A program made the position numbers and the translations under genes. DNA of 64,000 nucleotides, taken from contig JBGSRC010000007.1 of the NCBI GenBank assembly GCA_041737745.1, positions 92,678 through 156,677 on the forward strand, given 5' to 3'. The notes beneath the pieces are model-generated. The model was not told the DNA's origin. It searched no databases and was given only the letters and a program-made list of their open reading frames with translations. The stretch is from Candidatus Caenarcanales bacterium. Lineage in GTDB: Bacteria; Cyanobacteriota; Vampirovibrionia; Caenarcaniphilales; Caenarcanaceae. Below, piece by piece: positions 38,962 through 55,018 of this stretch. Within the stretch, counting starts at the first letter, position 1, and each line of letters opens with the position of its first letter.

Positions 38962-38979
38962 AGATTTTGGCTTGAGGTC

Positions 38980-39729
38980 ATGAGCTATCTGCAATTTCAC
39001 CTTTGTTTTATCTTTCCGGCAATTTTATTTGCTGCTCTTTGGGGTGACAAGAAGATCAAGCCGAGCGATTATTTAGTTTTAGGGATGATTGCTGTCATTG
39101 CCCTCGCCTATACTTTCATTTGGGACAAGCATCTGATCGAGAAGGGCGTTTGGACTTATCCTGTTGGCGTTGTCATTGGGGCTTTTCAGCGCATTCCCTA
39201 TGAAGAATTAGCTTTTATGTTGCTCCAGCCTTTTTTGGTGGGCTTGGCTTTCATTACGCTCAGTGATTTGCCAGAGCAACCTGATAGCACTAGGCCGATC
39301 ATTCCGGGGATCTTTGAGTGGTCTTGTTTTGGGTTTTGCTTAATGATTGCTTATGGGGGATATCAGCTGATGGGGCAGGCTTCGTATTATTATTTGGGGA
39401 TCATTTTGGCTTGGGCTGTGCCTATGGTCGGCTTGCAGCAGCTGTGGGGGGCTAGTGAGATTTTTGCTGTGCTTCGTAGATTTCCTTTGGCTTTTCTTGT
39501 GCCTACTCTTTATCTTTGTTTGGCTGATGCTTTTGCAATTTCGCAGGGGATTTGGAGCATTGCGCCTGCTTTCAGCACTGGCTTGAAGCTTGGTGTGTTG
39601 CCTGTTGAAGAGATTTTGTTTTTCACTGTGACTGATTTATTGGTTATTCAGGGTTTGATTTGTTATCGCTGCAGGAGCTTTTCCCCAAGGCTGAGCTTCG
39701 ATCCGTCTGGGGCTGTTAGCCCACAGTAG
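38980..39729 (+). CDS. lycopene cyclase domain (CrtYcd-like, two tandem half-domains) membrane protein
   Basis: Two copies of the lycopene cyclase domain signature (PYEELAFMLLQPF and LPVEEILFFTVTDLLVIQGL) in a roughly 250-aa polytopic protein. No other carotenoid genes nearby. Confidence 0.55.
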   Translation: MSYLQFHLCFIFPAILFAALWGDKKIKPSDYLVLGMIAVIALAYTFIWDKHLIEKGVWTYPVGVVIGAFQRIPYEELAFMLLQPFLVGLAFITLSDLPEQPDSTRPIIPGIFEWSCFGFCLMIAYGGYQLMGQASYYYLGIILAWAVPMVGLQQLWGASEIFAVLRRFPLAFLVPTLYLCLADAFAISQGIWSIAPAFSTGLKLGVLPVEEILFFTVTDLLVIQGLICYRCRSFSPRLSFDPSGAVSPQ

Positions 39730-39789
39730 AAAGAAAATTTCTGCACTCACTTGCTTTTATGAGCACCAAATATAATGGGGACTTCGCCT

Positions 39790-40704
39790 TCAAACCCCAT
39801 GAAAAAATCGAGCAAAGTGAAAAAATACCGGTGCAACCCAAATCAAACTATCAACTCGATCTAAAACCCCCCCATGACCGGGCAAAAGCTCTCCAAAATC
39901 TTTGATCCCCAGATCACGCTTGAATCCACTCATCACCAAATCCCCCAACTGACCTCCCAAACCAACAATCACCCCAGCCAAGGCCACCTGCCAAAAACTA
40001 AAATGGGGAAAAGCAAAAGTCCAATTGAAGAAAGCCAAAATCAAACTCGAGAGCAAGCCCAAGACTGACCCCTCAATCGTTTTATTTGGGGATATGACAC
40101 TAAAGTTTGTCCGACCACAAGTCTTGCCCCAAAGAAAGCAGAGAGCGTCATTCAGCTGCGTAAAAATGAGAACGTAAAGCAAGTACCCTAGCCCATAACT
40201 ACAATTGGCTAGATAACCTAGATGTCCCAGAAACCAGCCAAAGTAAATCACCCCCACAGACCCTAAACCAAGCTGCACCAAAGCTCCCTCGTACTGATTC
40301 TTGAAAATAGGAATGAGCGAAAGCAAAACAATGCCCCAAATCGGCAAAGCCATGAAGAGCGGATAATTATCGAAAATCGAACAAGCGGTAAAGCCGACGA
40401 TCAAAGCCCGAATCACCCATAAAGCCCACTGACCCAAAGCAGGAGTAGCCTTGTGCAGCTCTTCAATCGCAAGCAAAGAAAGCAGGCCGACAGCCAATGC
40501 CCAAGCCCAAGACCCAAGCCAAAGCGGCAGAAAGACACAAGGAATGATCCCCAACCAAGTCAAGTAAGGCTTCTTGGCTGCCTCGATCGGCTTCAACCAG
40601 ACGAGCAGACCCAGTAGGCCGTAAATCCCCAACGCAAGTCCGGTGTAGGTTAACAAGACTGGACTGGGGAAGCTGAAAGTGAAAGGTGCAGGCATGTTTA
40701 GCAA
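39790..40704 (-). CDS. cdsA: phosphatidate cytidylyltransferase (CDP-diglyceride synthase)
   Basis: Signature SGFKRDLGIKDFGELLPGHGGVLDRVDS. Confidence 0.85.
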   Translation of the reverse strand: MLNMPAPFTFSFPSPVLLTYTGLALGIYGLLGLLVWLKPIEAAKKPYLTWLGIIPCVFLPLWLGSWAWALAVGLLSLLAIEELHKATPALGQWALWVIRALIVGFTACSIFDNYPLFMALPIWGIVLLSLIPIFKNQYEGALVQLGLGSVGVIYFGWFLGHLGYLANCSYGLGYLLYVLIFTQLNDALCFLWGKTCGRTNFSVISPNKTIEGSVLGLLSSLILAFFNWTFAFPHFSFWQVALAGVIVGLGGQLGDLVMSGFKRDLGIKDFGELLPGHGGVLDRVDSLIWVAPVFFHFARFFHGV

Positions 40705-40807
40705 GAATTATTTCACAAGCAACAATCCCCAATAGCAAATATGCCGCTTGCAGCCTTCTCTCTGATAATATTTCCAAGTCATGCAGCGCTCCCCTTACGG
40801 CATCAAG

Positions 40808-41761
40808 ATGAAGAGTCTAGGATCGGCTCTTCCCACAAAAATAATCACCAACGAAGACCTTGGCCTGCTGATGGACACTAACGACGAATGGATCAAAAGT
40901 CGCACCGGCATCTCAGAGCGCCGGATCTGCACCGGTAACGAAGACGGACTAGAACTCTCAGTGATAGCCGCCAACAAAGCCCTAGGTGATACCGATCCCA
41001 ATGAACTCGATTTGATCATTGTTGCTACTTCTACCCCTGATTTTCTTTATCCGTCCATGGCCTGTCGCCTCCAAGAGAGACTAGGCGCGAAGCGCGCTTT
41101 TGGTTTCGATCTCAGTGCTGCCTGCTCAGGTTTCGTCTATGGCCTAGTAAACGCTTATCAGTTCATCAGAAGCGGCGACGTGAAGCGAGTAATTTTGGTG
41201 GGTGTTGATATTCATTCGCGTTTTATCGATTGGCAGGATAGATCGACGGCTATTCTCTTTGGTGACGGGGCGGGGGCTGTGCTTTTAGAAAGTTGCTCGT
41301 CAGAAGAAAATGAACTTTTGGCTTATAGCCTACACTCTGACGGATCTGGCGCTTGTGATCTCACTTTACCCAATGCTGGTGCCGCTTTCCCTCAGAGCCA
41401 AGCTTCTATTGAGGCTCCTAAGGTCCAAATGAATGGTCGAAAAATCTATCAGTTTGCCGTCAGCACTATTCCGCTCTCTGTCGAAGAGACAGCTCAGAAG
41501 GCTGGACTGACCAGCAAAGACGTCGATTATTTGGTCTGTCATCAGGCGAACCAGCGGATCATTGAGTCGGTGGCGGGAAAGATGGGCTTGCCTCTAGATC
41601 GGTGTCTGAGTAATCTGGCTTCTGTCGGCAACACCTCGGCGGCCAGTATTCCGCTTGTTTTAGACCAATATTTTTCGCTCATTCCGGCTGCGTCAGTTTT
41701 GGCTTTGACTGGTTTTGGGGCTGGTCTCACTTGGGGCACTGTCCTCTGGCGCAAAGCTTGA
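40808..41761 (+). CDS. fabH: 3-oxoacyl-ACP synthase III
   Basis: Active-site Cys in ACSGFVYGL, plus the His/Asn region HQANQRII...GNTSAASIP. Start set at MKSLGSALP (40808). Confidence 0.9.
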   Translation: MKSLGSALPTKIITNEDLGLLMDTNDEWIKSRTGISERRICTGNEDGLELSVIAANKALGDTDPNELDLIIVATSTPDFLYPSMACRLQERLGAKRAFGFDLSAACSGFVYGLVNAYQFIRSGDVKRVILVGVDIHSRFIDWQDRSTAILFGDGAGAVLLESCSSEENELLAYSLHSDGSGACDLTLPNAGAAFPQSQASIEAPKVQMNGRKIYQFAVSTIPLSVEETAQKAGLTSKDVDYLVCHQANQRIIESVAGKMGLPLDRCLSNLASVGNTSAASIPLVLDQYFSLIPAASVLALTGFGAGLTWGTVLWRKA

Positions 41762-41888
41762 AGCTTCACCCAGCTGAAAAGTAAATTACTTTGCCCTCAA
41801 GGAATTCAACTTTCCCAACGACAAGTGAGAGGAGAGTCAAGCATTCACCACAAAATCAGGGCAAAAAGAATTTATACTGGTTTATTAG

Positions 41889-42446
41889 ATGGTAGATTTC
41901 AATAAAATAATCCCCAACTTTCCCCTCCCCCCCGAGCGACCCCAATCGCAAACTGATAAAGCTGACCAAAAAGCGAAACTGAGTGAAAAGAAAGCAAGCC
42001 CAAACTCTCAAGTAAAAGCCGGTGAAGAGCCTGAACTAGACGGCCTCGTCGATAAATTGCCCCCGGATAAAGTAATCAGTAAGCTCGGTGAGCTGCTGGA
42101 AAAATCAGTAAAAGATCCGCGCGTCGAAAAGATGCTCTTAGAGATGAAAGTCTCTCCCGATAGCCGCCAAGCCGTCGCGCTCTGCGCCTTCTCTTGCATC
42201 AAACAAATTTTAGGTAAGCGCCTCAACCTGACAAATGATGACGAGAAGTCAGTGCTAGAGAGCATCAAGCAAGAATACGAGGAGAGCGTGCAAAAACAAG
42301 GCTCGCTAGATCCCGACGAACGCAAGAAAAAGCAACGCGAGAGAAAGAAAAAAAGCAAACCTAAAGTCAATGCCCTGCTCCATATCATTGAAGAAGCTCT
42401 GCACAAGCTTGATTTGCGTCCTAGTGGTTTATCTTCAGAGGGTTAA
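41889..42446 (+). CDS. hypothetical Lys/Glu-rich protein (low-GC island)
   Basis: No family; strongly basic C-terminal tail KKKQRERKKKSKPK. Confidence 0.45.
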   Translation: MVDFNKIIPNFPLPPERPQSQTDKADQKAKLSEKKASPNSQVKAGEEPELDGLVDKLPPDKVISKLGELLEKSVKDPRVEKMLLEMKVSPDSRQAVALCAFSCIKQILGKRLNLTNDDEKSVLESIKQEYEESVQKQGSLDPDERKKKQRERKKKSKPKVNALLHIIEEALHKLDLRPSGLSSEG

Positions 42447-42518
42447 ATTTTTCTAAAGAGGGCTTGCTTTTAGAGCTTGACAGGTGGATAATTTAAACTC
42501 ACTGTTTTTCTGATCTCT

Positions 42519-42920
42519 ATGCCAATTCAGCCTACTATTCTTTCTCTCTCTAGAAATATCTTTAAATCTTCTTATCGTAGCGGTGAACTTTATGAACAGC
42601 AGAGGAAAGTAGAAGAAGCAGCATGTCTCATAAAAGGCTCCAGCGATCCTGTCTTTGCTAATGCTTTAAACGCTTTTATCTGCCGCTGGAAAGGGGTGCT
42701 TGGTAAGAAGTGTGACAAGATCACAGAAGCAAAAGCGACTGTAGCGATAATGTCTAAACTGGCCAAAGAAATATCCGGTAAGAATTTTGAAAAATTGATC
42801 AACGATCACATAGACGGTTTAGATACTGATACGCTAGCTTTCGCTGCTACTGAGAGTGGAAAGAAACAACAGTTAGTGCTCAAGGCAATAGAATTGCTCA
42901 ACCAAGCCATCAGGGGTTAA
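42519..42920 (+). CDS. small hypothetical protein, MPIQ N-terminus family (low-GC island)
   Basis: Starts MPIQPTILSLSRN; the 5' end ATGCCAATTCAG is shared with 28583 and 59959. Confidence 0.45.
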   Translation: MPIQPTILSLSRNIFKSSYRSGELYEQQRKVEEAACLIKGSSDPVFANALNAFICRWKGVLGKKCDKITEAKATVAIMSKLAKEISGKNFEKLINDHIDGLDTDTLAFAATESGKKQQLVLKAIELLNQAIRG

Positions 42921-42969
42921 GTCTTTTTAGTATTCTAATAGTCGCAAACCTGTATGGTAATATTCTTAA

Positions 42970-43512
42970 ATGTCTTACGTTTCTAACACTTATAATACTC
43001 GAGAAATAATCGGAAAAGTCACCTGTAGTCCTGAGCAACTAGGCATGCCTTGTGACTCACCAGAAGAGATCAGGCTGATAGACTCTCTTTCCCGCAAGGC
43101 AGGGCAAATGGGAAACTCCGTTTTTGGCGGAGGAATCAATGAACTGATCAATTTGGGAGTGATTAAGCGTTTTTCTTCACCCAGCGAGTGGCAAGCTTCT
43201 CAAGCAAGCTCTACGCTCAGTAATCCAGCAAAAGAAATCTACGATCACCTAAAAAGCTTTATTCTCGGCTGGCACAAAGATAACCCCAATTTCTCCCGCG
43301 AGACACCGAACAGAGTGACAGTATCCACTAAGCCCAATCCCGAAGGTCTACTGATTCTTGGCTTTGGTTTGATGGTGAGCGTGTTGATGTATCTACTCTC
43401 AAAGCTTTCGCCACCACCTCAGCCCCAAATTATTACAACCAGCTTGACTCTCACTCCCGCTGGTATCTCGTCTTTAGGGAAAGCTCCTCAGCCAGTCTAT
43501 GTGATCAAGTAA
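42970..43512 (+). CDS. hypothetical tail-anchored membrane protein (low-GC island)
   Basis: Single C-terminal TM helix (LLILGFGLMVSVLMYLLSKL) followed by a Pro/Gln-rich tail. Confidence 0.45.
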   Translation: MSYVSNTYNTREIIGKVTCSPEQLGMPCDSPEEIRLIDSLSRKAGQMGNSVFGGGINELINLGVIKRFSSPSEWQASQASSTLSNPAKEIYDHLKSFILGWHKDNPNFSRETPNRVTVSTKPNPEGLLILGFGLMVSVLMYLLSKLSPPPQPQIITTSLTLTPAGISSLGKAPQPVYVIK

Positions 43513-43530
43513 TAGAGTTATCATCTGTTC

Positions 43531-43950
43531 ATGAGACTCTTTTTCTTTTCGTTACTTATGTGCTTAGTACTCGGTTCTGATTCGCTGGAAGCGGCAAACA
43601 GCAAGAACGTCCTAGGAAGCCAACTGCAGGTCTGTGGACTAGAGCCGAAGACCGGTTTTTTCCGCAATGGTCTTTGTGAGACTGGTCCTAGTGACTCTGG
43701 TGTTCATGTTGTTTGTGCCCAGATGACCGATGAGTTCTTACGTTTTACGCTCAGCCAAGGCAATGACTTGATCAGTGCCAGAGGGTCTTCTTTTCCGGGA
43801 CTAAAAGATGGCGATAGGTGGTGTCTCTGTGCCTTGCGTTGGCGTGAGGCTGACGAGGCTGGTCTTGCACCTCCTGTGATTCTCGAGTCCACAAATCAAG
43901 CTGCTTTGAAGTACGTGGAACTAGAGAAGCTGAAAAAGAAGGCTATTTAG
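43531..43950 (+). CDS. DUF2237 family protein with N-terminal signal-peptide-like extension
   Basis: NVLGSQLQVCGLEPKTGFFRNGLCETGPSDSGVHVVCAQMTDEFL...GNDL...FPGLKDGDRWCLCALRW...APPVILESTNQAAL matches the DUF2237 consensus. It is preceded by MRLFFFSLLMCLVLGSDSLEA. Confidence 0.7.
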   Translation: MRLFFFSLLMCLVLGSDSLEAANSKNVLGSQLQVCGLEPKTGFFRNGLCETGPSDSGVHVVCAQMTDEFLRFTLSQGNDLISARGSSFPGLKDGDRWCLCALRWREADEAGLAPPVILESTNQAALKYVELEKLKKKAI

Positions 43951-44857
43951 GGGAAGAGCTAGGGCTTGCTATCGCTTTTTTCCCATCCCAGATTTCTTTA
44001 GCGTAGTCTGGAGTATCTTCACGGTAGATCACATGTTGCTTGGTTTTGCCATCTTTATCAACATAATTTGTGGCGATACGTTGAGGGTAGTGACTGGCCG
44101 GAAATTCATAGCCATAACCGGGGAACAGTTTGCCTTGATTGGCTGCAATGACTGCTTGGCTGGACTCTTGCTCTGTGATTCTTGTACCTTGACAATATAG
44201 TGATATCTGGGGCAAGAAATAAGGCTTGTCTTCTTTTGGATTCACTTTATAAAGAATGGAGCGCAGAACCTGAATCTCAAGTTTGTCGCTTTCCGGAAGA
44301 TAGTTGATCCGTTGCATCTCCACAAGATCTTGGCCTTCAACGTTGGTAAGGAGTTTTGCTTTAAGAAGATTTGGCTCTGAGTTAGTTTTGTCAAAGACTT
44401 TCCAGTCACTTAGTTTTGGGTTAAATTGTTTTGATTTAGCTTCGTTGAGATTCAAGATCTTCCAGTCAAGCAGATAATCTTTTTTACTGTATTCTTTCTT
44501 GACGCTTTCGGCAAGCATCCAAGGCTTACCTGGCTCAGACTGCTTTAGTTGGTAAAGATTGGGGAAGATGTGAAAAGTGGCTTCATCGGAAAAGCAAGTG
44601 ACAAACCATGCGCCTTTGCTTGTGCTTTGTTTTTCGTTTGTTGGGTTTAACTTGAACTGATTGCGCCATTCGGTGTGTCCGCTTAAAGAGCGCTCGCTAA
44701 GGTCTTTTTTGATGGAGGCAGGGTATTCGTAGGCTCCTACAGCCGTTTCGATCTTATTAAGTCTCTGTTTTTTTGCTTCTTCTTGTGGATTTGCGCAGGC
44801 GGTGAGGCAAGACAAACCGAGGAGAGCTAGCAGAATTTTTTTATTGCTTGATTTCAT
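43943..44857 (-). CDS. hypothetical lipoprotein
   Basis: Lipoprotein signal MKSSNKKILLALLGLSCLTAC; no family. Confidence 0.5.
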   Translation of the reverse strand: MKSSNKKILLALLGLSCLTACANPQEEAKKQRLNKIETAVGAYEYPASIKKDLSERSLSGHTEWRNQFKLNPTNEKQSTSKGAWFVTCFSDEATFHIFPNLYQLKQSEPGKPWMLAESVKKEYSKKDYLLDWKILNLNEAKSKQFNPKLSDWKVFDKTNSEPNLLKAKLLTNVEGQDLVEMQRINYLPESDKLEIQVLRSILYKVNPKEDKPYFLPQISLYCQGTRITEQESSQAVIAANQGKLFPGYGYEFPASHYPQRIATNYVDKDGKTKQHVIYREDTPDYAKEIWDGKKAIASPSSSPK

Positions 44858-44947
44858 GGCTGGTTTTTGAGGAGCTCAGAGACTTTAGTTTTCTATTTTC
44901 ATTACTCTAGCAGGGTGAGCTTTTCTTTGCTCTGCGCCAAATATTTC

Positions 44948-44985
44948 TCAAAAAGAAAGCCCTAGTACTGTTTAAAGTTAGGGCT
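44948..44985 (-). terminator. rho-independent terminator candidate downstream of the large surface-protein gene
   Basis: On the minus strand: AGCCCTA stem, 14-nt loop, TAGGGCT, then TTCTTTTT. Confidence 0.5.
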
Positions 44986-45024
44986 CACTTATTGAAAAAA
45001 TTACTTATTTAAATTAATTTTTGA

Positions 45025-47922
45025 TCACATATAGTCGGGGCCACCAGTTGGTCCCCCACCAGCATTGGGGTCAGAACCACCACCGCTACCGCCAGCATTG
45101 GGGTCAGAGCCACCACCGCTACCGCCAGCATTGGGGTCAGAACCACCACCGCCGCCACCAGCATTGGGGTCGTTACCAAGAACACTACCGTTGCCGCCAG
45201 CATTAGGGTCAGCAGCGCCAGAATAACCTGGATCATAGTAACCAGAGTAGTCTGTTTGATCATCGTCACCTTGAGGATTGGAGACTATTGCCTCAGCTGG
45301 AGCAGCCACAGGTTCCCCAGCTGGGTTTTCAATTGGCAAGGTAGTAATGAAATCCCCAATAGTTGGCAAGGGCGAACCTGGATCATTAGGACCAATTAAT
45401 TCGTAAACATCTACTGGTTGTTGAAGGATAGGATCTCCTGAAGCGACTACACCAAACTGACCTTGTCCTTCACCTGTAGCAAACTCACCAGTTTGGGTCA
45501 AATCAGAAACTGGTATGCCTGTGGCCGCAGAAACTGCTGCTAGGGTCTCATCGACAGTCTTATTCTCATCGGTGCCGAAATAGTAGACATCACCACCGGG
45601 AGTTACAACGACAGAGACATAGTCGTATTCGATAGATACAGCCGGCTCAGATGGAGGACCTGGATCGTAAATAGGTGCAGTATACACCGGAGGTATAAAG
45701 ACTTCTGCTGGAGGTGTGAAGGGTTCCTGAGGAGGGTTATTGTCTGGAGGTGGATTGTCATCCGGAGGTGGTGTCGGATTGTCCGTAGGTGGAGGTGGAG
45801 TTGGATTGTCCGTAGGAGGTGGAGTCGGATTGTCTGTCGGTGGTGGTGTCGGATTATCCGTAGGAGGTGGTGTCGGATTGTCTGTCGGTGGAGGAGTCGG
45901 ATTGTCCGTAGGTGGTGGAGTTGAGTCAGGAACACAATTTGGAATTGGGCATTTTGGATCGATCTCTCCACAGCTATTGGTTCCGGGGACAGTCCCTTGA
46001 GGACTAGTACCTTCGGGGCAACCAGGATCGGGCAAGCAAACACAGGGCGCAGGACTCACATCAGGCGGAACACATTCTTTGATCGGACAACGAGCAGGTA
46101 TGCACTTGTCGAAGCATTCACCGTCAGAAAGCGAATCTTCAGGATTGCTCTTGATGCAGGGAGGAGCAAAGAGAGCTATTTTGACTACTCTCAAGGTGCT
46201 ACCACTGGGGCAGACTGGATCAGCTGGGCACTCGCATGGAGGCTTGAAGCTAGGAAATAGTGTCGGAGGGATGCTAGGAGAAGGCAGAACTGGGTCGCAG
46301 ATCTCAGAACCGGGCTCAGTAATTCCAGCAGGATTGCTGTAAACGACTCTGCCGCTAGCATCTTTGGCAACTACAGAACTATCGACTTTGGCACAGCTTT
46401 CATCGAGGAAAATCAAACCGCTAAATTCAAAGCGACTAAAATCAGCATCGACTAAATCCGGTCTAGCTCCTATGATTCCAGAAGTGATGTCACTCTGTAT
46501 AGAGAGCTGAAGACGACGGAAGTCAGCTCTATTGAGGCAAGACAAGGCTTCAGGATCGCTCACTACCGGTGGGAAGAAGGTGAAGTCAGAATCAAGACCA
46601 CCGATTGGAAAGAACTCAAACTCTATAGATCCATCAATGTCTAAACGATAATCGCACTCTAGATTCGGAGAGCTGCTAGGACTGACACTTGGGCTAACAC
46701 TTGGTGAAGTGCTGGCACTGGGTGTTGGGCTTGGAGTTGCACTGGGTGATGGGCTTGCAGTTGGCTCACAGACGAGCTTCCGGCAATTCTTATTCGGTAA
46801 ACATTGAATGAAGCATTCATCGCTTCCTAATCCATCCTTGCAAGGATTGTAGAAGAGAGGACCTTGATCGACTACGGCCGACCCTGATGGACAGACTGGA
46901 GCCACTGGGCACTCGCAAGGAAGTGGCTTGATAGTTGGGCTGGGTGAAGGACTCGGACTTGCACTAGCGCTAGCACTCGGTGACGGACTTGGGAAGACCA
47001 AGCAGGGATTGGTGATTACTACTGGGCAGTTCAGCTCTTCAAGAGCGATCTTTTGAATATTTTCTTTAGTAAGAGGTAACTCTAAAACATCTTTGACCCA
47101 CCAAATAGCGGTGACAAGGGCAGCATCTTTATCGGTTAGACGGCCATCGCCATCCCAGTCATAACTGATCGTTTTGCGAACCACTGCTTCGGTGAAAATG
47201 CTTCTATCGATTTTCTTGCTGAAGCTTCCGTCTTCTTGTCTATAAAATTCGTCAGCTTGATTGAGCAAAAAATTGAAGTCTATTTCTCCGGCCTTGAACT
47301 CTTTGTTCCAGACAGCATAGGCAAGGGTTAGAGCAGCATCGTCATCGGTAATAGCCGGTAGCTGTTTTGGCAAATCACTGCAGGCTGTTGGCTGAATGCT
47401 GGGGGGGATAGGGGTTGAAGAGCCGCCCGTAGGTTGAACGCTTGGTAAATTTATCAAGCAGTCATTTTGGAAAGGAAGACTGAGGCCTTGTGTTGTCTTA
47501 CTGGCCAAAGTGTTGAGGAAGGCTTCTATTTCTTGCTTACTTCTTTTTCCTTGACTGAGGGCATCTACTGTGCCAGAGTCAGCCAAATTGACTTTTTGAC
47601 CAAAGCCGTTCCAGTCATAGTTGAAGATACTAATAATCTGCTCGTCAGAGCGTTGTGCTCCTCTGCATGCTGCCTGATCGTTATCATCGCTACAAAAAAA
47701 ACTCAGATCCGCTCTGATGCTTGCCAGAAGCTGTTGGTCGCTTGCGTTTGGTCTGGCTAGTATTGCAGTTGTTGCTGCTTCTAGGATTCTGACGTCTCCT
47801 GAATTGAGATCGTTTATGGCGATCGGCGGAGGCAGACAAGTTACTGTTTCGGCTATGGCGCCTAGGCCAGCTGAAAAGAGAAGACTGGTGATGATGAAGA
47901 GATGAAAAAGCAGTTTGTTCAT
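45025..47922 (-). CDS. large secreted repeat-rich surface protein: N-terminal dockerin-like Ca-binding motifs, three Cys-rich modules, Ser/Pro and Pro/Thr linkers, C-terminal Gly-rich repeats
   Basis: Signal peptide; DWDGDGRLTDKDAALVTAIW and DWNGFGQKVNLADSGTV (dockerin-like Dx(D/N)xDG); three CxC-rich modules (PCECPVAPVCPSGS...); (PTPPPTDN)x7; (SDPNAGG[SG]GGG)x4. Confidence 0.7.
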   Translation of the reverse strand: MNKLLFHLFIITSLLFSAGLGAIAETVTCLPPPIAINDLNSGDVRILEAATTAILARPNASDQQLLASIRADLSFFCSDDNDQAACRGAQRSDEQIISIFNYDWNGFGQKVNLADSGTVDALSQGKRSKQEIEAFLNTLASKTTQGLSLPFQNDCLINLPSVQPTGGSSTPIPPSIQPTACSDLPKQLPAITDDDAALTLAYAVWNKEFKAGEIDFNFLLNQADEFYRQEDGSFSKKIDRSIFTEAVVRKTISYDWDGDGRLTDKDAALVTAIWWVKDVLELPLTKENIQKIALEELNCPVVITNPCLVFPSPSPSASASASPSPSPSPTIKPLPCECPVAPVCPSGSAVVDQGPLFYNPCKDGLGSDECFIQCLPNKNCRKLVCEPTASPSPSATPSPTPSASTSPSVSPSVSPSSSPNLECDYRLDIDGSIEFEFFPIGGLDSDFTFFPPVVSDPEALSCLNRADFRRLQLSIQSDITSGIIGARPDLVDADFSRFEFSGLIFLDESCAKVDSSVVAKDASGRVVYSNPAGITEPGSEICDPVLPSPSIPPTLFPSFKPPCECPADPVCPSGSTLRVVKIALFAPPCIKSNPEDSLSDGECFDKCIPARCPIKECVPPDVSPAPCVCLPDPGCPEGTSPQGTVPGTNSCGEIDPKCPIPNCVPDSTPPPTDNPTPPPTDNPTPPPTDNPTPPPTDNPTPPPTDNPTPPPPTDNPTPPPDDNPPPDNNPPQEPFTPPAEVFIPPVYTAPIYDPGPPSEPAVSIEYDYVSVVVTPGGDVYYFGTDENKTVDETLAAVSAATGIPVSDLTQTGEFATGEGQGQFGVVASGDPILQQPVDVYELIGPNDPGSPLPTIGDFITTLPIENPAGEPVAAPAEAIVSNPQGDDDQTDYSGYYDPGYSGAADPNAGGNGSVLGNDPNAGGGGGGSDPNAGGSGGGSDPNAGGSGGGSDPNAGGGPTGGPDYM
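45050..45181. repeat. 33-bp in-frame tandem repeat (about four copies) encoding DPNAGGSGGGS
   Basis: agcattggggtcaga(a/g)ccaccaccgctaccgcc reiterated. Confidence 0.75.
45730..45925. repeat. 24-bp in-frame tandem repeat (about seven copies, plus degenerate 15-bp copies) encoding PTPPPTDN
   Basis: ggaggtggtgtcggattgtccgta reiterated with minor variants. Confidence 0.8.
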
Positions 47923-48134
47923 GTTTTAAGAGCTACTCACTACTTTTCATATTCACTGTTTTGCTTTATCTAAACATTATTTGTTTTGGGGGATAGTCCT
48001 GATTGGCTGTTTTTTGCTGGGGTAAGCGCTTATTTCTTCAGATTTTGCGCTTTGTTTCTTTAGGGATATCTTGGTTTGAACTCCAAGAGGCGCTGAATAG
48101 CGCTTAAATCTTTCTATGTGACTCAGGGGTTTAT

Positions 48135-48160
48135 TGGGGGCGCAAGCCCAAAACCACCAA
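48135..48160. repeat. intergenic repeat module variant (GGGGTTTATTGGGGGCGCAAGCCC)
   Basis: Variant of the GGGGGTTTGGGGGCG..GCCCCC module; an adjacent GGCGCTGAATAGCGCT hairpin lies at 48090-48110. Confidence 0.5.
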
Positions 48161-48206
48161 TAATCACCAATAATCTAAAATAGAAGCAATAGAGTAAATC
48201 TAAAAT

Positions 48207-49073
48207 ATGCCAACTTTCGTACTGCCCTTCGAGAAAATGCAAGGCCTAGGAAATGACTTTGTGCTTCTACACCACAAACACCTTCCACCCAAAATCGCCC
48301 TAAAAGATTTAGCCAAAAAACTCTGCAACCGGCACTTTGGGATAGGAGCCGACGGTCTGATCATAGTAAAACCCCCTGAAGAAATAGGCGATTTTGCTTG
48401 GATTTATCTGAACGCCGATGGAAGCGAAGGGGAAATGTGCGGAAACGGTATGCGCTGCTTTGCTCGTTATGTCTATGATCGGGGCCTGACTAAATCCACT
48501 GGTTTCAGCGTTGAGACTTTGGCTGGCCTGATCGAACCTGAGATCCTTGAAGACGGACTAGTACGCGTCGATATGGGTGCTCCGATCTTTGAAGCAAGCT
48601 TGATTCCGGTGCTGAGCGAGCAGGGCGAAATCCTGAACGAGGAAGTCTTAGTGCTCGATCGAACTTTTCACTACTCAGCCGCCAGTATGGGCAATCCACA
48701 TGCCGTGATTTTTCTGAGCGAACAAGAAAATCTGAGCGATTTCCCCCTTGAACAATACGGGAGCGCTTTCCAAGCAGACCCGCGTTTCCCAGCTGGCGCC
48801 AATATCGGCTTTGCTAAACTGTCGGATAAGAAAAATAACTTTGAGTTGCGCGTCTGGGAAAGAGGTTGCGGGGCAACGCTCGCTTGCGGTACCGGCGCCT
48901 GCGCGGCTGTTGTCGTCGCTATTCGCCTCGGTCTGTGTTCCCGTGCTAGTGAATGCATAGTCCAGCTACCGGGTGGAAAGCTCAGTGTAGTTTGGCCGGA
49001 AACAGGCAATGTGCTGATGACTGGTCCCGCCCAATCTGTTTTTCTCGGTCAAATGGAACTGGAACTAGCTTGA
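48207..49073 (+). CDS. dapF: diaminopimelate epimerase
   Basis: KMQGLGNDFVLL and the two catalytic Cys regions (GNGMRCFARY and GTGACAAVV). Confidence 0.9.
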   Translation: MPTFVLPFEKMQGLGNDFVLLHHKHLPPKIALKDLAKKLCNRHFGIGADGLIIVKPPEEIGDFAWIYLNADGSEGEMCGNGMRCFARYVYDRGLTKSTGFSVETLAGLIEPEILEDGLVRVDMGAPIFEASLIPVLSEQGEILNEEVLVLDRTFHYSAASMGNPHAVIFLSEQENLSDFPLEQYGSAFQADPRFPAGANIGFAKLSDKKNNFELRVWERGCGATLACGTGACAAVVVAIRLGLCSRASECIVQLPGGKLSVVWPETGNVLMTGPAQSVFLGQMELELA

Positions 49074-49783
49074 GCCCACTTGACGAAGTCAGTGCCAGAA
49101 GACTAAATCAAAGTAAAAAGCGCAAACGAAGATTGGTGCTCGGTCTTTTGCTTGCTTTGGTTTTCAACGGATCTCTTCTCTATTTGTTTTTTAGTCGCTC
49201 CAGCCCAATCCCCAATCTTGAAGAGCTAGGTCTAAAGTCTGACACGCTGATCCCCGAAGGGCCCCTCTGGCTTCTCGAGTTCGATCGGTTGCGCTTAAAA
49301 AGAGAAATATTGGCCACTAATCCCCTCGTCACTGACCTAGAGCTGAAAGCCGTCTTGTTTCCCGGTGAGCCGCGTCTGCAAGTCAGCTACCAAAAAGATA
49401 AAGCCCTTGCTCGCTTCAGCAATGGCTGGATCTTGACCGGTAAGGGAAAAATCCTCAAAGACAAAAATCATCAATTTTTGCCGGAAGCCAGTATTCAATG
49501 CTCAAAAACCGAATGCCAAGATTGGCAAGATAGAGGCAAAGAATTGTTGGAGCTAGTGAGCGTGGCCAATGCTAGCTCACCGGAAAAGCTGATCGCAGTG
49601 CATTTAGTAGAGGGCACAGTCTTTCTAGAATTTGAGACATTTCGGGTTTCACTGGGTTTTTACGACAAAAATGGCCCCAAACGCCTGAAAAATCTAGCCA
49701 AGCTCAAGGACCGTCTAGACTGGAACAAAATCACTGAAATCGAGCTCTATAGTGGATCTAAAGGCAGAATAGTGGCGCAATGA
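49070..49783 (+). CDS. FtsQ-type (POTRA domain) cell-division protein candidate
   Basis: Short basic cytoplasmic N-terminus, one TM (LVLGLLLALVFNGSLLYLFF), then a POTRA-like region. The likely start is a TTG overlapping the dapF stop (TTGA); the ORF-track ATG at 48953 would overlap dapF by 120 nt. Confidence 0.4.
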   Translation: MSPLDEVSARRLNQSKKRKRRLVLGLLLALVFNGSLLYLFFSRSSPIPNLEELGLKSDTLIPEGPLWLLEFDRLRLKREILATNPLVTDLELKAVLFPGEPRLQVSYQKDKALARFSNGWILTGKGKILKDKNHQFLPEASIQCSKTECQDWQDRGKELLELVSVANASSPEKLIAVHLVEGTVFLEFETFRVSLGFYDKNGPKRLKNLAKLKDRLDWNKITEIELYSGSKGRIVAQ

Positions 49784-50709
49784 ATACTGCAAACAAAAAA
49801 TCTCCCCTCGTCTTCGCGATCATCGCTTTAGCCTCACTGAGCTTTGGCACTCTTTCAGTCAGCGCTGAGCCGACTAAAGCCGAAAGCAAAGCCGTTCAAA
49901 CCGGTATCTCCAAAGAAGCCTTTGAGCTGCACAAGCAAGCCTTTAAGGCCGCCAATAAAGACGACTTCACGGCCGCTATCGGTTTTTTACAGCGTGCAGT
50001 CGAGCTGGAGCCAAAATTTAGCGATGCTCTCTATAATCTGGGCTCTCTTTATTTGCATCAGGCCCAGTATCAAGACGCCTACTTCTACTTTCAGCGTCTA
50101 GTGACTATCGATCACAAAGACAATCAAGCTAGACTGCAAAAGGCGATTTGTCTGATTGGTCTAAAGAATTTTCCGGAAGCTGGCCTAGAGCTCGCCAAGA
50201 TCCCCAATGAAACTGAAGATTATTTGCGGGTGAATGAAATCCTCGAATTTGCTCTCAGCAAGCAACTAGACAGACTGAAAGATAGTCCCATCCCCACTCT
50301 CTACCCTGGCAAGAGCAGCACGCTGAAAGCCTATAGACAAATAGAATCTCCGACTGGCATCACTTCTGACGGGGAGAGTATTTATATTGCTGATTTTTTT
50401 AGTAATTCGATCAGAAGAAGCGCCCCCAATGCTGCCGAAGAGAATGGGTCAGAGCTCTTTCTCGAATCCCCACTACTCTCTGGGCCATCCAGCCTAGCCT
50501 TCGATCCGGTCAGCAATGCGCTCATTGTCGCCAATTATCGTTCTGGCAGCTTGCTGTCCGTCAACCTCAATAGCAAAGAGGTGACAGTGATCGCCACTGA
50601 GCTAAAGAAACCCTATGCCATATACTTGGGAGCCCGCAACAAGCTCTATGTCAGCGAGCAAGGTAAGAGGACAGTTTCGGTGTTAGACTGGACTGGTTCA
50701 GCCAAGTAA
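49780..50709 (+). CDS. secreted TPR-repeat plus NHL-repeat protein
   Basis: Signal peptide; TPR repeats (AIGFLQRAVELEPKFSDALYNLGSLYL...); C-terminal beta-propeller-like NHL repeats (IYIADFFSNSI, LVVANYRSGSLLSV, LYVSEQGKRTVSVLD). Confidence 0.6.
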   Translation: MNTANKKSPLVFAIIALASLSFGTLSVSAEPTKAESKAVQTGISKEAFELHKQAFKAANKDDFTAAIGFLQRAVELEPKFSDALYNLGSLYLHQAQYQDAYFYFQRLVTIDHKDNQARLQKAICLIGLKNFPEAGLELAKIPNETEDYLRVNEILEFALSKQLDRLKDSPIPTLYPGKSSTLKAYRQIESPTGITSDGESIYIADFFSNSIRRSAPNAAEENGSELFLESPLLSGPSSLAFDPVSNALIVANYRSGSLLSVNLNSKEVTVIATELKKPYAIYLGARNKLYVSEQGKRTVSVLDWTGSAK

Positions 50710-50720
50710 GCGTTTTTCTC

Positions 50721-51326
50721 TTGGAATACCCTAAACTCATTCTCGATTTAGTAGATTCTTTACGCCAATTTAGCGGGGTCGGACAGAAGTCGGCCCTGCG
50801 TATGATCTTTCAGCTTCTAGGCTGGGAGCGAGAAGAGGTCTTTTTGCTAGCTGAGCTTCTAAATAGACTTCGTGAAGAGATCGGTTCTTGTCCGGTTTGT
50901 TTTAATCTGAGCGAGCAAGGAGCGCTTTGCCTGATATGCAGCAATCCTAAACGCGATAAACGGATAATCTGTGTGGTCGCCAATGCTCGTGAGCTCTTTG
51001 CGCTGGAAAGAACGAAACAATTCAAGGGCATGTACCATGTCTTACAGGGCTTGATTTCGCCGATGGACGGAGTTGGTCCAGAAAAACTAAAAATTCAAGA
51101 GCTATTGGGTCGCATCGATGAGACTACAGAAGAGTTATTGTTGGCGCTCAGCCCCTCTACTGAGGGCGAGGCTACTTGTCTTTATTTGCGCCGATTGATC
51201 ACTAATTCTGGCAAAAGCTTGCGGGTGACTAGACTTTCTTATGGCATGGCGATGGGGGGAGACATAGAGGCTACTGATGAGCTCACTTTGAGTAAGGCGC
51301 TGGAATGGAGAAGAGAACTAGCTTAG
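50721..51326 (+). CDS. recR: recombination protein RecR
   Basis: C4 zinc finger (CPVCFNLSEQGALCLIC), Toprim domain and HhH N-terminus. Confidence 0.9.
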   Translation: MEYPKLILDLVDSLRQFSGVGQKSALRMIFQLLGWEREEVFLLAELLNRLREEIGSCPVCFNLSEQGALCLICSNPKRDKRIICVVANARELFALERTKQFKGMYHVLQGLISPMDGVGPEKLKIQELLGRIDETTEELLLALSPSTEGEATCLYLRRLITNSGKSLRVTRLSYGMAMGGDIEATDELTLSKALEWRRELA

Positions 51327-51543
51327 GCCGAATTGGAACGAAACATTGCTTTGGTCTCCTCGGAGACTTTCTGTTTTTCCTTGTTATCAAGGGGGGTGAG
51401 GGGAAGCTAAAGAAAAAAGTGATTTATGTGTGATCTAAGCTCAGCTTTGCACTCAACCCCCCTCGAAGGGAAAAGAGAAAGTGAGGAAACTCAAGAGAAA
51501 CTAGGGCAATGATTCGATCCAAACGGATCAAAGCTCAGCTTTG
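51327..51543. repeat. composite intergenic repeat region between the recR and fliR stops
   Basis: GCCGAATTGGAACGAAACATTGC immediately after the recR stop; GGGGGGTGAGGGG module; CAATGATTCGATCCAAACGGATCAAAGCTCAGCTTTG immediately after the fliR stop. Confidence 0.65.
51353..51380 (+). terminator. possible rho-independent terminator after recR
   Basis: GGTCTCC-tc-GGAGAC hairpin followed by TTTCTGTTTTTCC. The stem is short and the loop minimal, so confidence is low. Confidence 0.3.
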
Positions 51544-52317
51544 TCACTTGAAGAAATAAAGCTGCCCCAGCAAAACCTGTACAATCCGCCCCTGCAAAAA
51601 AGGCAACAAAAATAACAAAATAAATATCCCAATAATCGGCTTAGCCGAACGACTCAACTCAAAAGCATTGACCTGCTGAGCCGAACGCTGCATCAGAGCT
51701 AAAACGAAATCGACAAACACCAAAATAATCAAAAAAGGCGCCGACAAAACTACCCCTAAACCTAAAATATCACCGAATAATTTGATAATTTCCGGAAAAG
51801 TGATCCCCAATGCCCCAAAATCAGTGCCGTTTAGAGGAAATGTCCCAAAGCTCTTTTTGAGACCAATCAAACAAATCTCCAAACAACCAGCCTGCAAAAA
51901 CAAAACAAGTGCATAATTCCGAAACAATAAATTCATCAGCGTAGTAGGGCCAGTGCTCGGATTGACTATAGAAGCAAAATTGATCCCAAGTTGGAAATCA
52001 AGAATCTCACCGAGTGCCTCAATCACACAAAGTCCAAGCTTAGAAAGAAAACCCAGAAACAAACCAACAGCCAAATTCAAAACCAAAGCAAAAGGATAAT
52101 TGAACCCCGGAGTATTGGGATCAAAAGGCGTAACTACTGATGAAAGCATCAGGGAGAGGCTAAAGACCATGGCAACCTTGATCAGGTTCGGCAAATTCTT
52201 CTCGCCTAAAGCCGGCGCCTCGACAATGAAGCCCAAGACACGTGCCAAAATGAGTAGAAAATTACCCAACCATAAATCAAAAATCAACCTAAAATCTGAG
52301 GCGGAGAATAGCTCCAT
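51544..52317 (-). CDS. fliR: FliR/SctT-family type III (flagellar or injectisome) export apparatus membrane protein, solitary
   Basis: Aligns along its whole length with FliR, e.g. GEILDFQLGINFASIVNP (compare E. coli GEIIGLQMGLSFATFVDP). No fliP/fliQ/flhB neighbours. Confidence 0.7.
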   Translation of the reverse strand: MELFSASDFRLIFDLWLGNFLLILARVLGFIVEAPALGEKNLPNLIKVAMVFSLSLMLSSVVTPFDPNTPGFNYPFALVLNLAVGLFLGFLSKLGLCVIEALGEILDFQLGINFASIVNPSTGPTTLMNLLFRNYALVLFLQAGCLEICLIGLKKSFGTFPLNGTDFGALGITFPEIIKLFGDILGLGVVLSAPFLIILVFVDFVLALMQRSAQQVNAFELSRSAKPIIGIFILLFLLPFLQGRIVQVLLGQLYFFK

Positions 52318-54406
52318 GATTAAAAATTATATCGATCCAAACAGCGTTTTCCCCTTTCCTCTCGACGATTTCCAAAAGCAAGCGATCGAAAAGCTGATAG
52401 TCGGCGAAAGCGTTTTGGTCTGCGCCCCCACTGGTAGCGGCAAGACGGTGATAGCCGAATATGCAATCCATAGCGCCCTCGCCAACAACAAACTAGTCAC
52501 CTACACCACCCCGCTCAAAGCACTCAGTAACCAGAAATATTTCGATCTCTGTAGACTCTTTGGCTCAGAAAACGTCGGTCTGATCACCGGTGACCAGCAA
52601 ATCAACCGAACAGCGCCAGTCTTAGTCCTGACTACCGAGATCTTTAGAAACATTCTCTATAAGCCTGAGCAAGAAAAAGAAATGCTGCGCGATATGCAGT
52701 TTGTGGTGCTAGACGAGTGTCACTACATGAAAGACAAAGAGCGTGGCACCGTCTGGGAGGAGATTTTGATCAATGCTCCACCAAACATTCAGTTGGTAGC
52801 TCTCTCGGCCACTGTCGGCAATCCTAAGCGTATTGTCAGTTGGATGAATGAAGTGCATGGCAAAACTGCTTTGATTTTAAGTGATTTTCGGCCTGTGCCT
52901 TTGCGCTTTTTCTTCTTTGGGGCTGGAGGGTTGAAGCCGCTCCTCACACCACAAGGCAAAGCTAATCCGAGTCTGATTCCGCATAGCAATAAGCTCAAAC
53001 GTAGCAACCGTGATTTTCCGCATGGCACAGAAGTAATAGCCGCTCTCGCTAAGCGCGAAATGCTCCCCTGTATTTATTTTTTGTTTAGCCGCAAGGGCTG
53101 TGACGCTGCTCTCGATTTTCTGGCCTCTTCTTCGCTGCAACTGCTCAGTCCAGATGAACAGCGCCAGTTGAACCTCGAGCTAGACGAACTAGTAGAAGAA
53201 CATCCTTGGCTCAAAGATCATAAGCACCTCAGAGCCCTCCGCAAGGGGATGGCCGCTCATCATGCCGGTATGCTTCCGCTCTTGAAAAGCATTGTCGAGG
53301 TTTTCTTCCAACGAAATATGCTCAAAGTGGTCTTTGCCACTGAGACACTGGCTGCTGGGATCAATATGCCCGCTCGCACAGTCGTGCTTTCCCAGATCTC
53401 TAAGCGCAGTACTTACGGTCACCGGACGCTTACGGCCTCAGAGTTTATGCAGATGTGTGGGCGGGCTGGACGAAGGGGAATGGACGAGGTCGGCTACGCC
53501 GTAACGCTCGAGACTCCTTACGAAGGAGTCCTAGAAGTCAGTACGCTGGCTCTTTCGCCTCCAGAAGATTTGATCAGTTCATTTAGTCCATCCTATGAGA
53601 TGGTGTTGAACCTAGCGGCTCGGCATGACTGGAAGACTTGCAAGAGCACTGTGCAGCGTAGCTTTGCCCGTTTTGATTTGCAAGGACAAATTAAAAGTCT
53701 GCAAAACGATCTGATTCAAATCGGTGAATCAAAGAAGAAAGAAGCTTCGGCCGAGAAGCGCAAGGCGAAAAAAGCGAGCAAAATCTCCAAAGATCTGGCT
53801 CGACTAGAAGAAGTGCCTTGGCGTGACTTTGAACTTGCCGGTCATCTGCTCCAAGATCTTGATTATTTGGATGATGATCATAAGCCCACCAAGAAAGGCC
53901 TAGCGGCGGCTGACTTACGCACTGACAATATACTGCTCACCTCTGAGGTGCTTTTTTCCGGTTGTCTAAACGATCTGACTGTTCCTGAGCTAGCGGGCAT
54001 GGCCTGTGCTCTGGTCAACATAGAGCTACGAGGCGATCAGTGGCGGCGTACTGAGCAGTTTGTGCTCGGTGAAGATTTGCTTTCTGAGGCTGTAGCGGAA
54101 GTCTATAGCCAAATCAGGGAGCTTTCGGCGGCGCAGGTGGATCTGGAGATCAACTGTCCTTTACCTTTCAATCCCAACTCAATCAATCTTGGGATTACTT
54201 GGTCATTGGCTGAGACTTGGGAGGATTTCAAGCTTAGTTTTGAGCAGGAGGATGGTGATCTAGTGCGTGTTTTAAAGCAGGCAGGAGATTTACTGAGACA
54301 ATTTGAGGAATTTCCGGCTAGTTCTAGCCAGTTTAGGCGTAATGCCGGTAATGCTAGAGCTCTAATGCTTAGGCCACCGGTGAAAGACGAGCTCCAGCAA
54401 AGCTGA
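52316..54406 (+). CDS. Ski2-like superfamily 2 DEAD/DEAH-box helicase
   Basis: Q-motif/motif I FPLDDFQKQAIEKL...CAPTGSGKT, motif II VLDECHYM, motif VI QMCGRAGRRG. Start set at MIKNYI (52316), because the upstream ORF-track extension overlaps fliR. Confidence 0.7.
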   Translation: MIKNYIDPNSVFPFPLDDFQKQAIEKLIVGESVLVCAPTGSGKTVIAEYAIHSALANNKLVTYTTPLKALSNQKYFDLCRLFGSENVGLITGDQQINRTAPVLVLTTEIFRNILYKPEQEKEMLRDMQFVVLDECHYMKDKERGTVWEEILINAPPNIQLVALSATVGNPKRIVSWMNEVHGKTALILSDFRPVPLRFFFFGAGGLKPLLTPQGKANPSLIPHSNKLKRSNRDFPHGTEVIAALAKREMLPCIYFLFSRKGCDAALDFLASSSLQLLSPDEQRQLNLELDELVEEHPWLKDHKHLRALRKGMAAHHAGMLPLLKSIVEVFFQRNMLKVVFATETLAAGINMPARTVVLSQISKRSTYGHRTLTASEFMQMCGRAGRRGMDEVGYAVTLETPYEGVLEVSTLALSPPEDLISSFSPSYEMVLNLAARHDWKTCKSTVQRSFARFDLQGQIKSLQNDLIQIGESKKKEASAEKRKAKKASKISKDLARLEEVPWRDFELAGHLLQDLDYLDDDHKPTKKGLAAADLRTDNILLTSEVLFSGCLNDLTVPELAGMACALVNIELRGDQWRRTEQFVLGEDLLSEAVAEVYSQIRELSAAQVDLEINCPLPFNPNSINLGITWSLAETWEDFKLSFEQEDGDLVRVLKQAGDLLRQFEEFPASSSQFRRNAGNARALMLRPPVKDELQQS

Positions 54407-54441
54407 CAAAGCTCAGATTTACCCTCAGGCTTCAAAAAACA

Positions 54442-54470
54442 GGGGTTTGGGGGAGAAGTCCCCATTAAAC
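54442..54470. repeat. intergenic repeat module (GGGGTTTGGGGGAGAAGTCCCC) plus adjacent CGTTGGATGG..CCTTCCAACG hairpin
   Basis: The same family as 2325; the flanking inverted repeat CGTTGGA...TCCAACG spans 54469-54500. Confidence 0.55.
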
Positions 54471-54541
54471 GTTGGATGGTCGAGGCTACCCTTCCAACGT
54501 TAAATGGTAGGTGATTAGACCTCTTTTAGATCGATTTATTA

Positions 54542-55018
54542 TTATTTGCATACGAAAAGCAAAAGTCCTGGATGATCACTTGGACGCTCGCCAAGAGGCC
54601 AGTGAAAGCGGCGATCCACCGCGTTGATTGCAACATCATTAATACTAGCTTCGCGACGCGACATAAAGCCGTTAGTGGAAAATTCCCACTGTTCATTACC
54701 ATATGACCGCCACCACTGACCAGTATCATCATGCCACTCATATTGAAATCGCACCGCAATATGATTCTCATGGAAGGCCCATAGTTCTTTAATAAGTCGA
54801 TAATCCGACTCTTCCTGCCATTTCTGAGTAAGAAATCCGATTATCGCTTCACGCCCTTGTAGGAACTCACTACGATTGCGCCATTGACTGTCAGGCGTGT
54901 AGGCAAGTGCGACACGCGAGGGATCGCGGTTGTTCCAGGCGTTCTCCGCTAGGCGGACTTTCTGCCTAGCAGTTTCAAGCGTAAACGGTGGAAGCGGGGA
55001 CCGAGCATTCTCAGACAT
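54542..55018 (-). CDS. DUF1348 (NTF2-like fold) family protein
   Basis: [23 protein letters not shown]...[16 protein letters not shown]...[10 protein letters not shown]...[10 protein letters not shown] matches the conserved DUF1348 block order. Confidence 0.7.

Follow-up and report, generated by a model that had tools for sequence, protein, structure and literature searches.

Tandem repeats that keep the reading frame of an exported bacterial protein can be taken as a mark of antigenic size variation, and the question raised by the locus described here is whether that interpretation holds when the repeats are read codon by codon. The locus is a 965-codon gene on the minus strand of a 64,000-nucleotide stretch of DNA from a Candidatus Caenarcanales bacterium (contig JBGSRC010000007.1 of assembly GCA_041737745.1; the whole stretch is called the window, and positions count from its first letter). 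The Melainabacteria are uncultured relatives of the Cyanobacteria whose cell surface and ecology are little known, and the secreted protein described here is a candidate for a lineage-specific interaction protein. The original prediction described a surface protein with dockerin-like calcium-binding loops, three cysteine-knot-like modules and two tandem tracts that could vary in length. The account that we favour, and regard as reasonably probable, is that this is a genuine gene for a Sec-exported, acidic modular protein in which an old Pro-rich spacer and a younger Gly-rich tail accompany modules engaged in binding or scaffolding outside the cytoplasm. The repeats, in particular, look mainly like conserved spacers.

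Divergence of the two tandem tracts

The two tracts have periods of 24 and 33 bp, both of which preserve the frame, as had been claimed for them. At the peptide level the Pro-rich tract consists of five consecutive exact TPPPTDNP units followed by TPPPPTDNP and TPPPDDNP, so that of the seven identical PTPPPTDN units initially described the period and five exact copies stand, and two further units deviate. The DNA is far from the near-perfect 24-bp repeat that had been reported: the program TRF delimits an array at 45745-45921 with a period of 24, 7.2 copies and 77% matches, the units have a mean pairwise identity of 85%, within a range of 75-92%, and no exact repeat is longer than 20 nt. Matches rise to 81-86% when a period of 48 is used, a better fit which suggests that the array was once expanded by duplication of a two-unit block. 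The distribution of the differences is informative. Among the five exact units all pairwise differences (36/36) fall at third codon positions and are synonymous; seven of the eight third positions vary, compared with none of the 16 first and second positions. A peptide that is conserved while its DNA has diverged synonymously is the pattern expected of an old array kept by purifying selection, not of one that is turned over by slippage. On this pattern the tract would be an extended spacer in which selection preserves the peptide itself.

Extended segments rich in Pro and Thr or in Pro and Ser serve as linkers between domains in modular proteins that bacteria secrete, as the PT linkers do in cellulases. 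The present tract resembles them in lying between small globular modules of an exported protein, and differs from them in being a strict eight-residue repeat that contains Asp and Asn and whose peptide is conserved. This conservation suggests a sequence-specific role beyond spacing, for example in modification or binding. In P0003, one of the two relatives of the protein (see below), the last Cys module is directly followed by another Pro-rich repeat, (PYYPTPE)x5, in the equivalent place of the architecture, which indicates that the spacer is conserved as a feature and its sequence is not. Compared across the family, the tract sequences clearly point to turnover on evolutionary time scales. 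A shorter direct repeat, 24 bp by two copies with 92% matches, was also noticed at 46715-46763, within the second Pro/Ser linker (SPSVSPSVSPS).

The Gly-rich tract close to the C-terminus shows another pattern. Its 11-residue units of the DPNAGG type begin at residues 905, 918, 929, 940 and 951, and TRF reports an array at 45059-45171 with a period of 33, 3.4 copies and 93% matches. Units 3 and 4 agree at 32/33 positions, an exact repeat of 32 nt is present at 45077/45110, and the near-identity ascribed to this tract is therefore real. As plausible substrates for slipped-strand or recombinational change, then, the 33-bp units qualify and the 24-bp units, at 85% mean identity, do not. The Gly-rich tract may be a younger, flexible tail, and would be the sole part of the protein with real potential for gain or loss of units. 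RTX-type calcium repeats were considered for this tail and rejected: RTX repeats have a nine-residue unit with a GGxGxD-plus-hydrophobic pattern, whereas the unit here has 11 residues and lacks that pattern, and the protein carries an N-terminal signal peptide.

In the size-variable tandem-repeat surface proteins of pathogens, for example alpha C and Rib of group B Streptococcus, the units are long, near-identical as DNA and repeated many times; such proteins are anchored to the cell wall, and their length polymorphism is documented. The protein studied here shares with them in-frame tandem repeats, a signal for export and two adjacent near-identical 33-bp units; it differs in that its units are short and few and, in the larger array, divergent as DNA, and neither an anchor nor documented polymorphism accompanies them. 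More generally, a perfect peptide repeat resting on synonymously diverged DNA illustrates that a tandem repeat is not automatically a hypervariable one, and codon-level divergence between units offers a quick test for hypervariability.

Assembly breaks within the tracts

Length or strain variants of the gene were not seen in any collection searched (protein clusters, representatives, metagenome contigs). An independent Logan assembly of SRR28170465, located by exact look-up of two flanking genes, bears on the same point. Logan contigs are derived from a de Bruijn graph with k = 31, simplified by Minia3, with k-mers seen once discarded (PMC12424806). Two of them, L081 (window 45787-57775) and L082 (window 33943-45088), are 100% identical to the window, together span 23.8 kb of it and cover the first 712 and the last 21 codons of the gene without a difference. 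One contig ends within each tract, at 45787 and 45088, and breaks occur nowhere else; the chance that both ends would fall in the 290 bp of the tracts among 23.8 kb is ~1.5e-4. When the graph is built with no other input than the window, its branching 30-mers are confined to 45077-45141. Since the k-mers of the window fail to explain the two ends, the reads must hold a second context for the terminal 30-mers, 45059-45088 and 45787-45816.

What this second context might be was explored by simulation. The end at 45088 arises when one extra 33-bp unit of the unit 4 (U4) type is added, and arises equally from a C-to-T change at 45109, which makes unit 3 the same as unit 4, or from a single-nucleotide variant (SNV) at 45058 or 45089. 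The end at 45787, which lies at CCACCTCCACCT of the TPPPTDNP tract, is obtained when unit 6, the irregular one, gains one or two Pro codons and, equally, with an SNV at 45786 or 45817; no gain or loss of a whole 24-bp unit yields it. The contig ends would also be compatible with a copy that was collapsed in the source assembly, or with a similar tract present elsewhere in the metagenome. Truncated products that could be guessed from the Logan contigs matched nothing in the protein collection. The breaks genuinely hint at heterogeneity or imperfect assembly of the tracts; they do not show a change in copy number.

Modules, family and probable cellular location

The gene encodes an uninterrupted frame whose product contains 33 Cys and 14.6% Pro, has 125 Asp and Glu residues against 48 Lys and Arg, and consists to 28% of low-complexity segments. 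Its layout is that of beads on a string, as derived from its alignment to the relatives, from self-comparison, from motif scans and from alignments of the modules: two helical modules (A1 and A2), a first Cys module (C1), a middle (M) domain, two further Cys modules (C2 and C3) and a C-terminal region, with joins rich in Pro, Ser and Thr. Linkers of Ser, Pro, Ala and Thr between modules had been part of the original prediction and are evident in the translation.

Relatives of this protein (the query, P0001) are exceedingly few. P0002 aligns to 41% of the query length at 52% identity, and P0003 to 62% at 34% identity. A word-indexed search of 5.8 billion clusters with the whole protein returned only P0001, P0002 and P0003. 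As low-complexity words might crowd such a search, an exhaustive hmmsearch was made with a profile of residues 25-663 against 1.84 billion representatives, and it recovered the same three proteins only; residues 664-965 were searched for homologues as part of the whole protein. Each of the three is alone in its own 90% cluster. Family patterns found no relative among species-representative genomes, a collection that does not include the source genomes of the three proteins, and metagenome contigs contained nothing related by A-module patterns or by a degenerate probe for GGLDSDFTFFPP. The protein has no match in Pfam, NCBIfam, PADLOC or PHROGs even at E <= 10, and when the PDB was searched with the whole sequence and with profiles of A1, A2, the Cys modules and the M domain, nothing above chance level was returned; weak matches to SERCA (E = 0.3), ribokinase (E = 0.026) and Art v 1 (E = 1.7) were dismissed. 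By these sequence searches the three proteins make up an orphan family to which every module is confined. Metagenome-assembled genomes, those of uncultured lineages included, often encode secreted repeat proteins of this orphan kind; the near-absolute orphan status of this family is nevertheless notable. About 15 billion predicted proteins yielded no relative of its modules outside the family, and it supplies three undescribed domain types.

In its AlphaFold2 model the N-terminal module A1 forms a helical bundle at a predicted local distance difference test (pLDDT) score of 80-90, and four aligned modules of this type share 35 invariant columns; a Foldseek search gave no PDB match to the fold (best E = 0.75, TM <= 0.2). 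Module A2 is modelled at pLDDT 57-79 in parts. The C-terminal halves of A1 and A2, loop included, are homologous (hhalign probability 88%, E = 3e-6, 60 columns). The loop of A2, D255-D266, has Asp at positions 1, 3, 5 and 12, Thr at 9, Gly at 6 and Leu at 8, and satisfies the 12-residue EF-hand/DxDxDG ligand pattern in a motif scan; the chance expectation of this pattern in a protein of such composition, calculated from the composition, is ~0.004. It is kept in both relatives, as DWDGDSRLTDKD in P0002 and DYTGDGRVDTRD in P0003, and is flanked by predicted helices at residues 245-252 and 264-279 in a modelled helix-loop-helix. The second Dx(D/N)xDG loop that had been proposed, D103-D115 in A1, is degenerate, with Phe at position 5, where the third acidic ligand is expected, and Ala at position 12, leaving one loop of the two that fits.

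DxDxDG loops are a generic motif found in many structural contexts, and EF-hand loops are usually paired. The A2 loop is like an EF-hand loop in its filled ligand positions (1, 3, 5, 9 and 12), its Gly at 6, its hydrophobic residue at 8 and its modelled setting; unlike one, it is unpaired, has Trp at position 2 and gives no Pfam EF-hand match at E <= 10, and its binding is putative. On the motif and the model it plausibly binds calcium in the manner of a dockerin or EF-hand loop. Two more EF-hand-like loops, YDFNGNGIIDDGTE and DKNLDGKITGAE, were observed in a C-terminal region of P0003 that is missing from the query; the EF-hand-like loops of that protein (entry residues ~1150-1215 and residues 97-108) have sub-threshold Pfam EF-hand matches only, and a precomputed PF26745 match of P0003 was not reproduced in Pfam scans.

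The three related Cys-rich modules, said to hold 6-8 Cys each, do align: C1 and C2 have eight and C3 six, the modules being delimited, more narrowly than in Table 1, at residues 336-385, 563-617 and 627-663. The nine Cys modules of the three family proteins follow the spacing CxCx5Cx15-19(Cx8-13Cx3)Cx4-6Cx4C and share six invariant Cys, two more being added by an insertion in the long form; C2 is 43% identical (BLAST) to the Cys module of P0002. Like EGF-like domains and knottins, they are modules of about 38-58 residues with six or eight conserved Cys, repeated in one secreted protein. Unlike those, their spacing matches no Pfam, NCBIfam or PDB sequence, and a nine-module profile gave 0 matches at E <= 10 against all PDB sequences. 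The term cysteine-knot-like reflects resemblance of motif, to which no profile, PDB sequence or fold search lends support. The full-length model has a mean pLDDT of 33, and C1-C3 are modelled at 25-43, too low for disulfide connectivity to be read from it. The M domain is 60% identical to P0003, is not present in P0002 and has no significant PDB or Pfam match; residues 725-904 have no counterpart in either relative.

With regard to location, the predicted signal peptide coincides with the only segment whose 19-residue Kyte-Doolittle mean exceeds 1.6, there being no other hydrophobic stretch in the protein; a 965-residue frame that begins with a signal peptide had been correctly recognized. The sequence indicates that the product is probably exported by Sec and cleaved after Ala24. 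A lipobox is absent, the first Cys being residue 29, past the predicted cleavage site. Sequence and hydropathy scans for surface anchors found no second hydrophobic segment and no C-terminal sorting motif, and anchor, autotransporter and sorting-domain families of Pfam and NCBIfam did not match. LeuA of the window has 73% identity to a Caenarcaniphilales MAG, with other Melainabacteria as the next best matches, and the host is placed in the Caenarcaniphilales accordingly. The window encodes LpxK, as befits a diderm host, and Melainabacteria have been described as diderm with lipopolysaccharide (PMC4040986). Because the host is diderm, the signal peptide alone would deliver the protein to the periplasm only, a further system being needed for export beyond it. 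The designation as a surface protein is consequently unsupported by the sequence: the Sec-type signal peptide stands, and lipobox, anchor and sorting signal are all missing. The presence of 33 Cys in conserved patterns fits an oxidising compartment, and we infer that the protein is probably disulfide-bonded.

These elements can be assembled into a single account. A chromosomal gene of a Caenarcaniphilales-type melainabacterium would produce a Sec-exported, highly acidic, probably disulfide-bonded protein in which related helical modules, one with a DxDxDG-type calcium loop, are followed by three small Cys modules that surround a 125-residue, four-Cys M domain, by the constrained TPPPTDNP spacer, by an unconserved C-terminal region and by the flexible tail. 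Judged from these predicted parts, the protein most likely acts outside the cytoplasm in binding or scaffolding, possibly with the help of calcium, either within the periplasm or once secreted further. The gene itself, its modular layout, its lack of wider kinship and the way its repeats have diverged are established, and export, disulfide bonding, calcium binding, the spacer role and the binding function are inferred. Several points weigh against this account. With an alignment only three sequences deep, the model stays below pLDDT 50 over most of the protein, and calcium binding hangs on one 12-residue motif that is below every Pfam threshold. The neighbourhood points to no process or pathway. 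The GC content at third codon positions (GC3) is 0.39, compared with 0.47-0.53 in nine housekeeping genes of the window (overall GC is normal, 0.496), and this could mean low expression or foreign origin. Finally, the k = 31 breaks in both tracts may indicate that these are less stable, or less correctly assembled, than the description as conserved spacers implies.

Among other explanations, the one closest to the original prediction is that of a surface adhesin or antigen in which slipped-strand mispairing or recombination alters the number of units in both tracts and so generates size variants. Periods that keep the frame, the 32/33 identity and 32-nt exact repeat of the 33-bp units, the improbable position of two contig ends, the second read context that both terminal 30-mers need, the simulated ends given by an added U4-type unit or by extra Pro codons in unit 6, and the exchange of one repeat for another within the family are all consistent with it. 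Yet the larger array is only 85% identical between units, with exclusively synonymous differences among the exact ones, and never gives the observed end by whole-unit change; the 33-bp tract is low in copies (3-5); SNVs beside the terminal 30-mers or conversion of unit 3 to unit 4 account for the breaks equally well, and a collapsed copy or a similar tract in the metagenome would do so too; no length variant was found in any database searched; and an anchor or sorting signal is missing in a diderm host. We consider this explanation unlikely: although the original prediction is for the most part correct as a description of the sequence, its idea of size variation loses weight for the larger tract and may yet hold for the smaller one. 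A compound version, in which the family represents new extracellular modules confined to non-photosynthetic cyanobacteria of the Caenarcaniphilales type and the tracts are at the same time length-variable within one population, as the contig ends hint, making a variable attachment protein, seems to us quite unlikely. If true, it would add new building blocks (a helical single-calcium-loop module of ~130 residues, a CxCP module with six or eight Cys and the four-Cys M domain) and a variable secreted or surface protein for attachment to particles, hosts or prey.

The protein could also be imagined as part of a cellulosome-like complex, a subunit whose calcium loops, as a dockerin, plug into the cohesin of a scaffold. 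The resemblance to type I dockerins (PF00404, including the non-cellulosomal dockerin-like modules of bacteria and archaea) lies in an acidic 12-residue D-x-D-x-D-G-x-L-T-x-x-D loop that runs into a helix, with Asp at 1, 3, 5 and 12, Gly at 6 and Leu at 8, and in the modular, secreted nature of the protein with its Pro/Thr/Ser linkers; in P0003 the corresponding loop has a sub-threshold Dockerin_1 match (E = 2, 9.1 bits vs a cut-off of 22.9). A dockerin, however, duplicates a 22-residue segment within about 70 residues, whereas here there is one loop per ~130-residue helical module, and the loop of A1, which belongs to another module some 150 residues distant, is without the third acidic ligand. 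Neither the whole query nor its residues 25-310 matched Dockerin_1 at a limit as permissive as E <= 10; dockerins are absent from the Foldseek and PDB profile matches; and neither a catalytic domain in the protein nor a cohesin among the scanned neighbours in the 64-kb window came into view. With one loop per 130 residues and with no profile or fold match, A2 is not a dockerin, and this explanation is very improbable. The label dockerin-like goes back to a motif, with no backing from Pfam, NCBIfam, PDB sequences or Foldseek, and it should be dropped together with the cystine-knot label; "DxDxDG-type loop" and "CxCP Cys module" are apt names. As for the view that the frame is non-functional, whether a chance open reading frame (ORF), a pseudogene or a low-complexity assembly artefact, its orphan status, lack of annotated domains, 28% low complexity and atypical GC3 might seem to favour it. 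It is hardly credible given 965 unbroken codons, two relatives that keep the Cys positions at 52-60% identity over globular modules, repeat units that differ only synonymously, a confidently modelled A1 and an independent assembly that agrees over the first 712 and last 21 codons. The preferred account, that of an exported modular protein with a conserved spacer, has modest practical importance, and no function can be assigned to the protein.

Feature map, putative terminator and neighbouring genes

Table 1. Features of the gene and its 3' flank. Residues are numbered from the initiator Met; TRF, tandem-repeat program.
Feature	Residues	Window positions	Strand	Basis
Coding sequence, complete, 965 residues plus stop codon (45025-45027)	1-965	45025..47922	-	ORF list
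Signal peptide: MNK, hydrophobic core, A-I-A/E; predicted signal peptidase I site	1-24	47851..47922	-	
Module A1, all-helical, 4 conserved Cys (29, 77, 86, 155)	29-156	47455..47838	-	
Degenerate loop in A1, D103-W-N-G-F-G-Q-K-V-N-L-A-D115	103-115	47578-47616	-	sequence
Short linker	157-180			
Module A2, helical, 3 Cys, holds the canonical loop	181-308	46999..47382	-	
Putative Ca2+ loop, DxDxDG type, D255-W-D-G-D-G-R-L-T-D-K-D266	255-266	47125..47160	-	motif scan
Pro/Ser linker	309-334			
Cys module C1, long form, 8 Cys, CxCx5Cx16Cx8Cx3Cx5Cx4C	335-386	46765..46920	-	
Pro/Ser linker	387-420			
M domain, 4 invariant Cys	421-545	46288..46662	-	alignment with P0003
Cys module C2, long form, 8 Cys	562-619	46066..46239	-	
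Cys module C3, short form, 6 Cys, CxCx5Cx15Cx6Cx4C	626-665	45928..46047	-	
Pro-rich tandem tract, period 24 bp, higher-order period 48 bp	668-724	45751..45921	-	TRF
C-terminal region, acidic, Pro/Gly/Val-rich, low model confidence	725-904	45211..45750	-	
Gly-rich tandem tract, DPNAGG(N/G/S)... units, period 33 bp	905-961	45040..45210	-	TRF
Putative intrinsic terminator, stem AGCCCUA...UAGGGCU then UUCUUUUU		44950..44985	-	sequence, RNA fold

The putative terminator that had been placed 3' of the gene is present in the sequence: past the stop codon, positions 44985-44958 form a hairpin that a U-run follows, with a folding energy of -22.2 kcal/mol and z = -4.2. A simple scanner, which considers loops of 3-8 nt only, did not flag it. 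The hairpin stands between the gene and the next one downstream (43943-44857, minus strand, 304 residues), which has a lipoprotein-type N-terminus (LLGLSCLTAC), a low overall GC of 0.427 with a GC3 of 0.44, and no Pfam or PADLOC match. Together with the gene studied here it may belong to a small patch of genes that are lineage-specific, weakly expressed or acquired.

The other neighbours are housekeeping genes: dapF lies divergently upstream, and a DUF2237 gene, fabH, recR, fliR, dus, mnmA and a helicase gene are nearby. A mechanically called ORF at 48953-49783 (plus strand) overlaps dapF (48207-49073, plus strand) by 121 nt; the Logan gene call after dapF starts at 49070 and gives a product of 237 residues, with no Pfam match. 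Other ORFs without a family match are 59959-61419 (486 residues, neither Pfam nor NCBIfam), 16631-17809 (392 residues, no NCBIfam) and 56704-57735 (343 residues, no Pfam), and the 64-kb window contains no tRNA genes and no Rfam families at the gathering threshold. The FliR-type export gene (51544-52317, minus strand; Pfam Bac_export_1) is situated between recR and a gene for a DEAD/Hel308-like helicase, with no other flagellar gene nearby; flagellar genes have been reported for Caenarcaniphilales (PMC4040986). At 12067-13884 (minus strand), a 605-residue frame apparently fuses a glycosyltransferase-like region (residues 3-95) to LpxK, the tetraacyldisaccharide 4'-kinase (residues 265-561).

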